A stretch of 64,000 nt of DNA from Carcharhinus longimanus (taxonomy: Eukaryota), in contig JASCQW010000061.1 in the NCBI GenBank assembly GCA_030264375.1, positions 91,518,400 through 91,582,399 on the forward strand. The letters run 5' to 3'. The notes under the pieces are model-generated. The model was not told the DNA's origin. It worked only from the letters and a program-made list of their open reading frames with translations, and ran no database searches. Numbering within the stretch: the stretch's first letter is position 1; each line of letters opens with the position of its first letter. Below are positions 10,041-39,560 of this stretch, one piece after another. A program made the position numbers and the translations under genes.

Positions 10041-10955
10041 GACATAAGAACACTTGAACATATGATTAAGCGAGGATATTGTACAATTTACAGTTTGAAA
10101 ATCTGGGTTTGGTAAATTAATACAAAAGTTCAATCTAAGTTTTTTGTTGATTGATGAGTCATTTGTTACAAGCAAGTAGTTATACGAGGTTGAGTAGAAT
10201 TAAGGATTTACATCAAAATGATCCAGCAGCTAGCGGCAAACAAGATTAACAGCAATCTAATAGTTGGTCAAATCACATCTTTCAGATATCATAACTATAA
10301 GGTGCTGGTGAACACGAATGCAAATTTTTAAACTCTTTAGGAAAGCATTGCACTGAAGTAAAGTAAAATGTTTTTGGGATTTTATTAAATTCCTTCTTGA
10401 AAATTTCACTTAGTCAATGCAAAATTCATACAGCAAGTCAAATCTTTCACCATCATAATCCTTTACATATTGTATTTATATAATTTTGACTTATTAATTA
10501 TAAAATGTCTGGTTTTATAGCTACCCAACTCCTCTTAAATATTGCTATAGTGCATATGTTTTCTGGGCAGTGGTTTTCATTCACATTGTAGATGATAGTA
10601 CTTCTTTCACTGCATCAGGTTTGTTTTTAATGATGGTACAGCAGAACAGATATTGTACAGTGTATTCATTTCAAAACAAAGGTGCCAGCATAAAACACTG
10701 AGATAATGGAAGTTTTTTTTGTGATGGTGGGGGGAGGAGAGGAGAGAGGCAAAGGGAAGAAACAGACTGGCAGTTACTGGTGAATAAAATTTATACACAT
10801 GTATCCCACAAAAGGGTTTAATCACCAGCCAGCAGGGTAGANNNNNNNNNNNNNNNNNNNNNNNNNNNNNNNNNNNNNNNNNNNNNNNNNNNNNNNNNNN
10901 NNNNNNNNNNNNNNNNNNNNNNNNNNNNNNNNNNNNNNNNNAGAGCTCAACGTAC

Positions 10956-10967
10956 CAAAAACATCAG
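10956..10967 (-). CDS. MTSS1: MTSS1 12-nt alternatively spliced microexon (adds A-D-V-F between KKAKK and GKGDIQ)
   Basis: Minus strand: long poly-T tract ...ttttgctgtgccatatcttctgctAG|CTGATGTTTTTG|GTacgt. It is phase 1 to 1 and frame-preserving, and lies in the intron where the known 4-aa MIM long-isoform insert (recalled as VDTL in human) is encoded; Asp at position 2 is shared. Confidence 0.85.
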
Positions 10968-11954
10968 CTAGCAGAAGATATGGCACAGCAAAATTTGATA
11001 CAAAAAGGAAAAAAAAATAAGTCAAACTAATCTTCATGGTGTTATGCACAATATCTGCATCCACTTCTGCGCCAATTCACAAGTGTACATGCAAACCCAT
11101 ACTTTATTTCAATAGAACTACGAGATTGCAGACTTGAGTTACATTTGTGCTTGGTTACACTGTCCCACAAGGTTGGAAGTTAGGATATGGTGTATTAGTT
11201 TATAATCTGATAGTATACAGTTAACAGCACAATTAAAATCTCAATCATTGTGTTGCATTTGTGATATACCCACTCACAGCATTTAAGGCCAATCACTTCA
11301 CAAGTATCTTTATAACCAACAATTGATGCCAACAGCTGAGTGACGTTAATTTAACAAGGTAAGAGTCAACATAAGAAAGTCATACACAACAATTAAATGT
11401 TAAGGTAAAGTTGAAAATGAATCATCCTTAAAATACAAATCACAACTCATATTAAGCCTAATTTATGCTTAGTGTATCATTCAAATGTATTTAAAAGCAG
11501 AAATAAAGCAGAAAGTTAGAAGATTTGATGGAAATTTATTTCAACACTAGTTGACTTTAAACGAAAGTAAAGATTCACCTTATAGCCACTTATACACACT
11601 TTTGGTCAGCTTGTTGAGAATAAATTTTGGTGATATAAATTCACAAGAATTTAACACAAACAAATTAGTGTTAACAAATAAAGGCTCTATTATTTTCTTG
11701 CAAGTTAATATTTTCAGAACCCCACAATTTCTAAATTTATCAAGATTTAAATAAACTGCAAGTTTAAAACAAAAGATGGAATTTGTATCAACACATTATT
11801 AGAAGCTGCAGTTGTTAATTTAGAAAAGTATCTCTAAAAAGATCAGAAAATATAGAACTGCAAAAATTAAATGTAAAGGCTGTTGTCTATTATATTTCAA
11901 TTCCAACTATAATTTACAATTCTTACTGATGAACTGAGAAAATTTTACGTAAAG

Positions 11955-26274: not shown

Positions 26275-27057
26275 GACTTGATTTATTATTGTTATATGTA
26301 TTAACAGAGTGAAAAGTATTGTTTCTTGTGCACTATACAGGCAAAACATACCATTCATAGAAAAGGAAATGAGAGAGTACAGAATGTAGTGTTACAGTCA
26401 TAGCTAGGGTGTAGAGAAAGATCAACTTAATGCAAAATAAGTCCATTCAAAAGTCTGNNNNNNNNNNNNNNNNNNNNNNNNNNNNNNNNNNNNNNNNNNN
26501 NNNNNNNNNNNNNNNNNNNNNNNNNNNNNNNNNNNNNNNNNNNNNNNNNNNNNNNNNNNNNNNNNNNNNNNNNNNNNNNNNNNNNNNNNNNNNNNNNNNN
26601 NNNNNNNNNNNNNNNNNNNNNNNNNNNNNNNNNNNNNGTTTGCCTAATGGATTGGGCTACATTCATTACCTTTTGTAGTTCTTTGCAGTCTTGGACAGAG
26701 CAGAAGCCATACCAAGCTGTGATACAACCAGGATTAAGGCTTTCTAAGGTGCATCTGTAAAAGTTGGAGAGTCGTAGTGGACATGTCAAATTTCCTTACT
26801 CTACTGAGAAATTAGAGGCGTTGCTGGCTTTCTTAACAGTGTCAGCAAGGGGCGACCAGGACAGGTTGTTGGTGACCTGGACACCTAAAAACTTGAAGCT
26901 CCTTCCTACTTTGTCCCCATTGATGTAGACAGGGACATGGTCTCCTTTACACTTCCTGGAGCCAATGACAATCTCCTTCGTTTTGTTGACATTGAGGGAG
27001 AGATTATTGTTGCCGCACCAGTTTACCAGATTCTCTATCTTATTTCTATACTCCGTC
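26275..27057 (-). mobile_element. Rex1/Babar LINE, 5'-truncated RT C-terminus plus 3' tail
   Basis: ORFs EYRNKIENLVNWCGNNNLSLNVNKTKEIVI...FKFLGVQVTNNLSWS and LSNFYRCTLESLNPGCITAWYG are characteristic of Rex1/Babar RT. Confidence 0.9.
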
Positions 27058-27677
27058 TTTAACAACAACATTCTTCAATATTCCACCAAAATTTTGTACT
27101 ACTTACTAATCAAACATCTGCATTTACTGGAACAATATCCTTTACAAATAAGAGATTTGCCAACTGAAGCAATCAACAAAAAAATCTGAAGAGCAATCAG
27201 AAAGCGGAGGACACTGAGAAAGAACAGGAACAAGTTAGGGCCCAATACTTTAACTGACAAATGTGAGATGACAAAATATTTTACTGATCGTTAAATCTTT
27301 GGTCATTTAAAAACAAAATCACTCTTGGGATGTGGGCATCGCAGGCAAGACATTTATTATGCAATCCTGGCTGCCCCAGGAAGGTAACTGAATATAAATT
27401 AGAAGGGAAAACAATTATAAGCGGGATAGTGTTTTGCACATGGAGGAGATGGAAATACATTCAAAGACTAACTAACATAACTGTTTTAGCGCTTCAATCT
27501 TCACAACTGGATTGTACTAATATAGCGCAGTTCTGAAAGTGATCAGCTAGGATGTAAATTTCTGAGGTGATCTTGGATAAGTGAAGCACCAAGTCACCAT
27601 CTCCAACTGTCCAGCTGATAACAGTCTGTGAAAATGCTGTGATAAATGTGCTATCAATACGACAGTCTATAGAATGG

Positions 27678-35719: not shown

Positions 35720-36740
35720 CTTTCACAGGATGTGGGTGTCACTGCCATTTATTGCCCATTCCTAATTGCTTTTGAGAAGGTGATGGTAAGATGCCTTCTC
35801 AAACTGCTGCAATTTAGGTGGTGTAGGTACACCCACAGTGTACCTGTTGGGGACAAAGTTCCAAAATTTTGATCCAGCAGTAAGGAATGGTGTTATAGTT
35901 CCAAGTCAGGATGATGAGTTGCTTTGAGGGGAGCTTGCAAGTGGAGGTGCTCACGTGTGTCTGCTGCCCTGGTCCTTTCAGGTGGTGGCGACCATGGGAT
36001 TGGAAAGTGCTGCTGAAAGAGCTTTTGCTGTTGCAGTGCATCCTGTATATGGTACACTCTACATTGGTAGTGAATGTGGAGTGATGTTGGAACTGCATTG
36101 ATCCAACCAAGTGGAGAGAATTCCATCACACTCCTGACTTCTGCCTTGTAAATGGTGGATATGCATTAGAAGTCAGAAGGGAGNNNNNNNNNNNNNNNNN
36201 NNNNNNNNNNNNNNNNNNNNNNNNNNNNNNNNNNNNNNNNNNNNNNNNNNNNNNNNNNNNNNNNNNNNNNNNNNNNNNNNNNNGATATGCGTTAGAAGTC
36301 AGAAGGGAGTGACTCACTGCAGAATTCCCAGCCTCTGATCTGCTCTTGGAGACACAGTATTTATATGGTTGTTTCGACCAAGATTGTAGTTGGATTAGAA
36401 GCCGAGTGGCCCTGACAGAATCCAAACTGAGCATCAGCAAACAGGTTATTGTGATGCAAGTGCCACCTGATAGCACTGTTGATGAATATTTCCACTACTT
36501 TGCTGATGATCAACATTAGACTGATAGGCAATAATTGACCCGATCGGACTTGTGTTACTTTGTGGACAGGAAATACCTGGACAATTTTTTACATTGACGG
36601 GTAGATGTCAGTGATGCAGCTATTCTGGAACATCTAGGAGCGTGGTTAGTTCTGGAGCACAAACCTTCAGTACATTTTCCAAGGCACTGCCTTTTCAGTA
36701 ACCAATGTCTTCAGCCATTTCTTGACATCATTTGGTGCAA
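35720..36740 (-). mobile_element. CR1-clade LINE, second family, decayed
   Basis: Minus-strand translation YKAEVRSVMEFSPLGWINAVPTSL. The 3' tail ggatgtgggtgtcactgccatttattgcccattcctaattgc is shared with 9727-10040. Confidence 0.75.
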
Positions 36741-36741
36741 A

Positions 36742-39560
36742 TCACAGAATTACTACACCACAGACACATACACCACACCATTTAGCCCATCCTTTTACAC
36801 TGGCTCTCTAAATGAAGAGGTCGCGGAGTGCAATTTCCCGTTTTCTCCCCATAACCCTATGCATTCATTCTTGACAGATAATAACCCAATTACCTCCAAT
36901 TCTTTGTTTGAACCTGCCTCCATCACACATGCAGGCAGCATATTCCAAATACTAACCACTCAAAGTTTCTCATGTCTCCATTACTTCTTATGCCACTTAC
37001 CTTAAATCTATGCCCTTCTTCCACCAAAGGGAACAGTTTTTCACCTACTGTGCCCAGACCCCTCATGATTTTGAATCTCTTAAATCTTCTCTGAACTTTC
37101 TCCGCTTCACTCTCTCTTTATTTTGAAGTTCCTCAACCCTGGAACGATTCTCATGAATTTTTTTCTGCACTTTACTGCTTTCCAAAGCATGATGCCCAGA
37201 ACTGGATGCAATATTCTGCAAGGTTGAACCGACATTGCTTATAAATTTAACAAACTCTACAGCTTTTGAGTACAAAATTATTCACCATGCGCCCAACCTG
37301 CCCTATCAACTTCAATGACTTATGCAATCAGGTCCCTTGCTCCTGCATAGAATTATTTTACATTGGTTTGTATTCTTCCTGTCTAAATGAATCATTACAC
37401 ATTTCTCTATATTTTATGTTACCTGCCACATGTCTGTCCATTCCACCATCTTGTCTTTGTCATTTTGAACACAAGGTACAGCAACAGTAGGTGGTCATTT
37501 GACCCCTTGAGCCCTCTGCACCATTCAACGAGATCACGGCTGGTCTTTTACCTCATTTTCTCACACTTTTCCATATCCCTTAATATCGTTAATAACTAGA
37601 AATTTATCCATCTCTCTTGAACATACTCACTGACTGAGCCTCCACAGCCTTCTGTGGTTGAGAATTCCAAAGACTCATCACCTTTTGAGTGAAGAAATTC
37701 CTCCCCATCTTGTTGTTTTCTTTATTCTGAGACTATGTCCCTGATTCTAGACCACCTCCCACCCCTCTCCCTACCAGCTCACCTTCTATTATATTGGGCC
37801 CTGTATCAGTCAGCTGTCACTCCTCTAAACTCTAGAGAATAGAGGATCAGTCTCCACAATAGCATTGCAATCAGTCTGGTGACCCTTCATCGTATGCTCT
37901 CTATGGCAAGTGTATCCTTCCTTTGGAAAAAAACGACCAAAGCAAGACACAAAGCAAGACCGGGGCAGGTGGTTGAGGTAGAGGTAGGCGAACATGTGGC
38001 TAATAGTGACCACAAGTCCGTCTACTTTAGGATAAANNNNNNNNNNNNNNNNNNNNNNNNNNNNNNNNNNNNNNNNNNNNNNNNNNNNNNNNNNNNNNNN
38101 NNNNNNNNNNNNNNNNNNNNNNNNNNNNNNNNNNNNTTCAATAAGATCATGGCTGATCTGAAGTGGATCAGTTCCACTTTCTCCCCATAACCCTTAATTC
38201 CCCTGTCTATCAATAACCTATCTATCCGTGACTTAAATATATTTATCGAAGTAGCCTCCACCACTTCAACGGGCAGAGAATTCCAGAGATTCACCACCCT
38301 TTGAGTGAACAAGTTTCTCCTCAACTCTGATCTAAACTGTCCCCCCCTTATCTTGAGGCTGTGCCCTCTAGTCCTGCTATCCTTTCTACGCAGGAAGAAT
38401 CTCTCTACCTCCACCCTATCCATCCCCTTCATTATCTTATATGTCTCTATAAGATGCCACCTCATCCTTCTAAACTCCAACGAGTACAGACCTAGTCTAT
38501 TTAGTCTCTCTTCATAGTCCAACCCCCTCATCAGAAACCCCCTCAGTAGAAAGCCCTTCTACTTGCTTATTGCTTTTGCAAGTTAGCCTTCAGTGACCTT
38601 GTGAACAAGGATATCAAGGTCCCTTTGGACATCAACACTTGCCAATCACTCACCATTTAATACTCAGTTTCTGTTTTTCGTACCAAAATGGAAAACTTCA
38701 CATTTTTCCATGTTATAATCCATCTGTCACACTCTTGCACACTCATTTAATCTTATGTTCTACATTACCTCAGTGCACAATGTTTCCAAGTTTCATATCA
38801 GCCATGCCCTCGTTACACTAGGTTGTTATGTACATAAGAGAAAGGGTCCCAACGACAATTCCTGCGAAGTTTACAACAAACCACGTCTAGTCTGTAACAA
38901 CATGCATCAACCGCTACTCTGCTTCCTGTCATTCTGCCAAATTTCTATCCCAATATTGCTATTGTCCCTTTAACTTTGCTCTCAAGTCCACGGTGCAGCA
39001 CTTTATCAACTGTGGTGGCTAAATCACTGAAAGAGGTAACAAATAGATTTCTATGTACACTACATGAATAGCGTTACCCTCATTAACCTTTTTTGGTCAT
39101 CACCAAAAAAAGCACCAGCAAGTTAAAACATAGTTTGCCTGTAACAACTCTGCGCTAACTTTTCTTAAATAAGCCACATGTGCCCAAGCGACTATGAATT
39201 TCGGCCTGAATTATTGCTTCTAGATGTTTCTCTACTGCTGAATTTAAACTAATTTGCCTGTTGTTGCTGGGCTTAGCGTTGCATGTACACCTTTTTGATT
39301 TTGAACAAAGGTGTAATATTTGTGATTCTCCAGTGCTCTAGAACCAGAAACCAAGGAAGAAAATTATGGCCAGTGTCTCCACAATTTCCACTTGCTCAGT
39401 ATTCTTGGATGCATCTCATCAGGTCCAGGTGCCTTCTCAACATTAGTGCAGACAGTCAATCTAATACTTTCAATTTTAAATCTCTCAAGTGCCTGGATTA
39501 TCTCTTCTTGCATCTTACTTGAAGACATTCGCAAAGTATCCATTTAATACCTCAGTTATA
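36742..39560 (-). mobile_element. Cluster of nested CR1 fragments of different ages
   Basis: Several CR1 3' ends (about 36742 and 37475) and RT pieces (38540-39560, e.g. gcagcactttatcaac, ttgcctgttgttgctggg). It includes the young copy below and an opposite-strand endonuclease fragment PGQVVEVEVGEHVANSDHKSVYFRI at 37955-38036. Confidence 0.75.
38138..38531 (-). mobile_element. Young CR1 ORF2 C-terminus, open frame
   Basis: Uninterrupted MRGLDYEERLNRLGLYSLEFRRMR...RTRGHSLKIRGGQFRSELRRNLFTQRVVNLWNSLPVEVVEATSINIFKSRIDRLL. Confidence 0.92.

Follow-up and report, generated by a model that had tools for sequence, protein, structure and literature searches.

A 12-nt microexon in MTSS1 of Carcharhinus longimanus is almost certainly orthologous to mammalian exon 7 and may be controlled in part by SRRM3/4

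A 12-nt cassette exon was located on the minus strand of the window, the 64,000-nucleotide stretch of Carcharhinus longimanus DNA analysed here (contig JASCQW010000061.1, positions 91,518,400 to 91,582,399), and it is almost certainly the shark orthologue of MTSS1 exon 7. Taken as a whole, the reading we moderately favour is that of an alternatively spliced exon 7 orthologue which likely weakens Rac binding and whose inclusion in neurons SRRM3/4 may raise. The exon would insert ADVF immediately after KKAKK at the I-BAR tip, where the four residues would weaken Rac binding and leave membrane bending intact, by analogy with mouse. A distal branch point, a long U tract and a UGC-rich acceptor could let SRRM3/4 raise inclusion in neurons, and inclusion would probably be partial rather than neuron-exclusive, like that of the human exon.

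The original prediction, made from the letters of the DNA, had described a microexon with AG/GT borders that adds ADVF in frame at the I-BAR tip, preceded by a possible branch point, a U tract, an AG-free zone and three UGC motifs near the 3' splice site, and followed after 14 nt by a 100-N gap; every one of these elements was located (Table 1). Whether the 12 nt are included or skipped, the five exons of the gene that lie in the window contain no stop codon; the inclusion form reads KKAKK-ADVF-GKGD. With 12 nt the microexon preserves the frame and falls within the 3-27 nt size class of SRRM3/4 microexons. Matches to the branch-point-like pattern YTNAY begin at -58 and -54, each of the three acceptor UGCs is also a YGCY, and UGCAUG occurs seven times in the intron of the microexon. 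Predicted RNA folding around the microexon was no better than that of shuffled sequences (z = -0.21), and no second copy of the region was found in the window.

Table 1 Features of the MTSS1 locus in the window (positions count from the first letter of the window)
Feature	Position	Strand	Remark
Cassette microexon of 12 nt (phase 1), orthologue of MTSS1 exon 7	10967-10956	minus	adds A-D-V-F
Acceptor TAG, 3' splice site, ends 10968	10968..10990, including three UGC	minus	
UGC triplets	10990-10988, 10985-10983, 10973-10971	minus	starts at -23, -18 and -6
Donor, 5' splice site G/GTACGT	10955-10950	minus	
AG-free zone, 57 nt	10970..11026	minus	
U-rich tract	11017-11002	minus	inside AG-free zone
Candidate branch adenosines	11022 (-55) or 11018 (-51)	minus	consensus prediction only
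UGCAUG	11088..11093	minus	126 nt upstream of microexon
100-N assembly gap	10941-10842	n/a	begins 14 nt past microexon, hides downstream intron
MTSS1 exon 6, 75 nt, constitutive, upstream	21588-21514	minus	ends KKAKK (basic patch), phase 1
MTSS1 exon 8, 158 nt, constitutive, downstream	3820-3663	minus	begins GKGD
MTSS1 exon 5, 92 nt	23233-23142	minus	
MTSS1 exon 4, 85 nt	23807-23723	minus	

The intron of 17,693 nt that holds the microexon contains 21 stop-free AG-12nt-GT stretches, and 216 such candidates when every length of 3n up to 27 nt is counted. We passed the 216 through a splice filter (donor score of at least 4 of 5, pyrimidine fraction of at least 0.65, YAG, AG-free zone of at least 25 nt), whose thresholds were our own choice, made with the candidate already known, and the microexon was the sole pass. 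When one UGC was required in addition, it was the sole pass on both strands of the whole window. The other 20 of the 21 12-nt candidates in the intron failed the filter. At least three UGCs within -25 to -3 were present at 20 of the 3981 YAG sites of the window, and the four constitutive MTSS1 exons have none in that interval. That the 12 nt are a chance AG-N12-GT or a dead relic, never spliced in C. longimanus, is very improbable: the 21 stretches in the intron and the fact that no C. longimanus transcript was seen would suit such a reading, but the microexon alone passes the filter, both of its splice sites are intact, and it encodes the very peptide that is annotated as the insert in sharks, in a chimaera, in skate-cluster contigs and in a cichlid. 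A search of sequencing runs returned seven, one of them with at least half of the words and none listed as RNA, and it carries no evidence on expression.

The host gene is MTSS1, as had been proposed. The peptide of exon 8 matches mouse MTSS1 in PDB 2D1L, and many shark MTSS1 models carry it at 100% identity (among the best 120 of 5504 matches listed). Shark, skate and chimaera proteins grouped with mammalian MTSS1 at 99/93 in a tree of 33 rows with several long branches flagged, and at 92 in a second tree of 24 rows from which the junction columns had been dropped. The five-exon translation with the microexon is found exactly in three Chiloscyllium plagiosum RefSeq isoforms, and its skipped form in 30 of the proteins collected. 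The ADVF insert is present in RefSeq/UniRef models of C. plagiosum, Scyliorhinus canicula and Callorhinchus milii, all three of which also have skipped models; the exon is therefore already in the public annotation of two sharks and one chimaera. These ADVF isoforms are protein models and were compared as peptide only; their insert is identical to that of C. longimanus, and in C. plagiosum the identity extends over the entire translation of the five exons. The retrieved models come from 23 named species of cartilaginous fish; ADVF occurs in three of these and is absent in 20, an absence to be taken as soft because the count covers cluster representatives plus the members of nine chondrichthyan clusters only. 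The expectation that automated annotation would miss the exon fits the 20 species and fails for the three. Furthermore, two skate clusters hold 11 full-length proteins known from Logan only, and ADVF is present in two of them; the contigs behind these two, 4.8 and 5.0 kb long, could not code for 735 aa unless spliced, and we infer that they are spliced transcripts. Both isoforms, with and without ADVF, are thus known in relatives of C. longimanus, from the models of three species and from the skate-cluster proteins.

Bony vertebrates carry four-residue inserts at the same junction, namely ADVF in the cichlid Neolamprologus, ADAL in eel and in monotremes, ADNL in further teleosts, killifish among them, AEAL in both turtles and birds, and ADVL in aardvark. 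The mammal rows of a published alignment (rows 3-32 of 149) read VDTL, VDAL or VDIL (PMC6411742), and the supplement of the same paper has no Callorhinchus or Rhincodon entries. Mouse VDAQ (PDB 2D1L) aligns with shark ADVF. The shark exon resembles MTSS1 exon 7 of MIM IMD-L (human HsaEX0040731) in its gene, the junction after KKAKK, the length of 12 nt and alternative use (PMC2064081, PMC6411742, PMC2194783), and in having four residues with an acidic second position. It differs in its peptide, which is ADVF in the elasmobranch and VDTL/VDAQ in mammals, and the Rac effect was measured on the mouse form, while the tissue values are those of human breast and kidney. The distribution of ADVF in sharks, chimaera and cichlid, with ADAL, AEAL, ADNL and VDTL elsewhere, supports the predicted origin of exon 7 before the split of sharks and bony fishes. 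ADVF is likely the ancestral peptide, since it is common to chondrichthyans and some teleosts.

Inserts at the junction in jawless vertebrates were ambiguous as to whether they are microexons or splice-site shifts. Two hagfish species have GETF (P0201, P0340); one lamprey gene (P0196, P0341-P0343) has no insert, GEN or GENDAQ, and another (P0197 vs P0229/P0350) has an insert of 18 aa. GETF, GEN and GENDAQ resemble the insert, yet we set them aside as proof of a pre-gnathostome microexon because they begin with Gly-Glu, as reading through a GTGAG donor would give, a judgement made from protein sequence. An insert of 12 aa in amphioxus, found in five of six Branchiostoma floridae models and in 0 of 14 models of other Branchiostoma, was likewise rejected as a microexon and is likely an acceptor artefact, as none of these 14 carries it; no microexon was seen in the amphioxus models. 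Branchiostoma also has isoforms that lack GK at the junction (P0584, P0585, P0573), suggesting a 6-nt tandem splice site. Unrelated inserts are found at the junction in a brittle star, molluscs and a sea cucumber. Models of the brittle star Amphiura filiformis (P0212, P0348, P0349) comprise two distinct alternatives, each of 17 aa, together with a form that skips them, in the manner of mutually exclusive exons.

The four residues of the mouse insert are reported to lie at the IMD dimer's distal ends, and the long mouse IMD loses Rac binding, as the original prediction had stated: IMD-L gave no Rac pull-down and retained 10-15% of the binding of IMD-S by SPR, whereas both forms alike bound PI(4,5)P2 and induced filopodia (PMC2064081). 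Within the I-BAR, the insert residues are described as varying most (PMC6411742), so the result for mouse VDAQ need not hold for ADVF. By analogy with mouse, we nevertheless consider it probable that the shark insert has the same effect on Rac. When a skate protein with ADVF was modelled by AlphaFold, the helix ran to residue 157 and was followed by a loop at 158-162 (mean pLDDT of 86 over residues 151-160); the prediction is that ADVF lengthens the long helix at the tip by roughly one turn, up to the GKGD loop.

The acceptor of the shark exon shows the hallmarks of SRRM3/4 microexons, with UGC after the pyrimidine tract, a long AG-free zone, a strong donor and a putative distal branch point. 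UGC is reported for 74-79% of the microexons under SRRM3/4; it is no strict requirement, and some copies have no effect (bioRxiv 2024.09.17.613571). The candidate branch adenosines lie 51-55 nt upstream, compared with human medians of 45 nt for neural and 34 nt for other exons (PMC12871342). With the SRRM3/4 programme, for example DAAM1, whose microexon is conserved from sharks to humans (bioRxiv 2023.01.12.523772), the exon shares its size of 3-27 nt, a preserved frame, a putative distal branch point, UGC, a strong donor, a cytoskeletal host gene and conservation across jawed vertebrates. However, members of the programme are neural and SRRM3/4-dependent, and the human data on MTSS1 exon 7 lean against both. 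The mean PSI of HsaEX0040731 is given as 9 in normal breast and 35 in breast tumours, and as 30 in normal kidney and 20 in kidney tumours, and the exon is not on the list of 314 HEK293 SRRM4 targets from the same source (PMC7935315). As absence from the list can reflect read coverage, it lowers the SRRM3/4 claim and does not refute it. Furthermore, none of the 708 zebrafish neural exons tabulated in PMC12626424 names HsaEX0040731 as orthologue. The neural exons listed there for zebrafish 'mtss1' are of 27 and 123 nt; the 27-nt exon probably lies outside the exon 7 junction, since its coordinates put it downstream of the 123-nt exon. The 123-nt exon (DreEX0047992), with HsaEX0040732 as its human orthologue and a neural dPSI of 66 (PMC12626424), may be exon 12a, which has been described as mammal-only (PMC2194783). 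In mouse cerebellum, exon 7 was detected with an exon-7 primer and no band for its alternative use was reported (PMC2194783); in our judgement, the product spanning exons 1-9 would hardly resolve 12 nt on the gel.

A related microexon of 9 nt is present in MTSS2/ABBA (MTSS1L), annotated as HsaEX0040737 in human and DreEX0048005 in zebrafish mtss1la (PMC7935315, PMC12626424). The RT-PCR primers for HsaEX0040737 encode TLKLQKK and NDMYLL, which flank the same junction (PMC7935315). Between KKARK and GKGD, 56 of 67 MTSS2-type matches have ELL and five have EVL or VEVL, a count in which the query carried the insert and so favoured insert-bearing forms. The exon is on both the SRRM4-target list and the zebrafish neural list, its PSI in HEK293 rising from 40.6 to 92.5 with SRRM4 (PMC7935315); it is neural in human and zebrafish, and loss of Srrm3/4 in zebrafish lowers its PSI by only 9 (PMC7935315, PMC12626424). 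In an alignment, the core of the MTSS2 insert falls on the three final residues of its MTSS1 counterpart, and the two microexons share the junction and an acidic-any-hydrophobic core (D-V-F, E-A-L, D-T-L). They differ in length, 9 versus 12 nt, and the SRRM4 response and neural use are those of MTSS2. In frog, MTSS2 has VEVL and EVL forms (P0457-P0461), suggesting a 3-nt tandem acceptor that interconverts 12- and 9-nt microexons.

How the shark exon is regulated has to be weighed from these data. The neural SRRM3/4 switch of the original prediction, in the strict sense of an exon skipped outside neurons and turned on by SRRM3/4 through the three UGCs, is one that we regard as quite unlikely. 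The acceptor architecture is that of a textbook case, the absence of ADVF from the models of 20 of 23 cartilaginous species and from nine of the 11 Logan skate proteins fits restricted inclusion, and the zebrafish paralogue exon has a PSI of 78 in neural tissue and 0-20 elsewhere (PMC12626424). Against this, inclusion of the human orthologue extends beyond the nervous system (the PSI of 9-35 in breast and kidney), the exon is off the SRRM4 list, no zebrafish neural exon maps to it, and even the paralogue exon responds so little to loss of Srrm3/4. Inclusion outside neurons is by itself no bar to SRRM4, since the MTSS2 exon has a non-neural PSI of 25-68 and yet responds. The neural SRRM3/4 label is unproven, and we put a contribution of SRRM3/4 to inclusion in shark neurons at a little short of even chances. 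We take the YGCY cluster at the acceptor to be an MBNL-type motif and the UGCAUG at -126 to be an RBFOX-type motif. A tissue-biased exon run mainly by MBNL, RBFOX or an epithelial programme with little part for SRRM3/4 would accommodate these motifs, all three UGCs being YGCY, and also the shifts of human PSI in breast tumours (9 to 35) and kidney tumours (30 to 20), which occur though SRRM4 is reported to be silenced in tumours generally (PMC7935315). Such short motifs are common, as the seven UGCAUGs of the intron illustrate, and we found no paper tying MTSS1 exon 7 to these factors, so we hold this explanation, too, to be rather unlikely. Supplements gave no MTSS1 matches in the files covered (PMC12868881, 1 file; PMC9303857, 12 of 18 files; PMC5630039, 11 of 27 files); PMC10178952 concerns exon 12, and in PMC6429586 Mtss1 is named only within GO lists. 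The literature search, which left most subscription journals outside, returned no paper on the shark exon, on MTSS1 exon 7 under SRRM3/4, or on the pairing with MTSS2.

On grounds of synteny, the MTSS1/MTSS2 split would go back to the first vertebrate genome duplication. With slightly better than even confidence, we propose that the 12-nt microexon of MTSS1 and the 9-nt microexon of MTSS2 descend from one I-BAR-tip microexon that was present on the vertebrate stem before the duplication into MTSS1 and MTSS2. The 9-nt form would have arisen by a 3-nt shift of the acceptor, comparable to the VEVL/EVL forms of frog MTSS2; a third gnathostome paralogue would have lost the exon; and regulation would have diverged, MTSS2 being neural and SRRM4-responsive and MTSS1 broader. 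The third paralogue forms a supported clade of skate (Leucoraja; P0237, P0587) and teleost-type sequences (P0193, P0198, P0228, P0238), and none of its sequences seen has an insert at the junction. Either this single origin holds, or the exon was gained twice at a loop that tolerates inserts. Inserts arise independently at this loop in invertebrates, the trees place MTSS1, though weakly, beside the third paralogue, which lacks the insert (93/85 and 86 in two trees), and the cyclostome inserts may be donor shifts, all of which count against a single origin. MTSS1 and MTSS2 as one clade were neither shown nor rejected by a tree test (p-AU 0.06), and no shark MTSS2 was identified among the protein matches.

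The evolutionary part of the original prediction is right: a splice variant of MIM that alters Rac binding is at least as old as the ancestor of the jawed vertebrates. As a rule microexons are deeply conserved across this group, and the exon was already public, so its age alone is ordinary. More interest attaches to the microexon that MTSS2 carries in parallel: should the pair be homologous, it offers a testable case of microexon regulation diverging after genome duplication, and under a single origin the shark copy, with its probably ancestral ADVF and its UGC-rich acceptor, would tell which of the two modes of regulation is the older. Caution is needed here, as a UGC-rich acceptor is no proof of SRRM3/4 control.

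The window holds 13 N gaps, seven of them of exactly 100 N, consistent with a draft assembly in which intron lengths are approximate. A 27-aa extra segment before exon 4 in C. plagiosum models (P0046, P0010) gave no convincing tblastn match in 23808-64000. Exon 3 was not found in the window, which implies that intron 3 exceeds 40 kb here. Open frames at 38139-38558, 36285-36588 and 26799-27074 on the minus strand resemble, by eye, what we take to be fragments of LINE reverse transcriptase.
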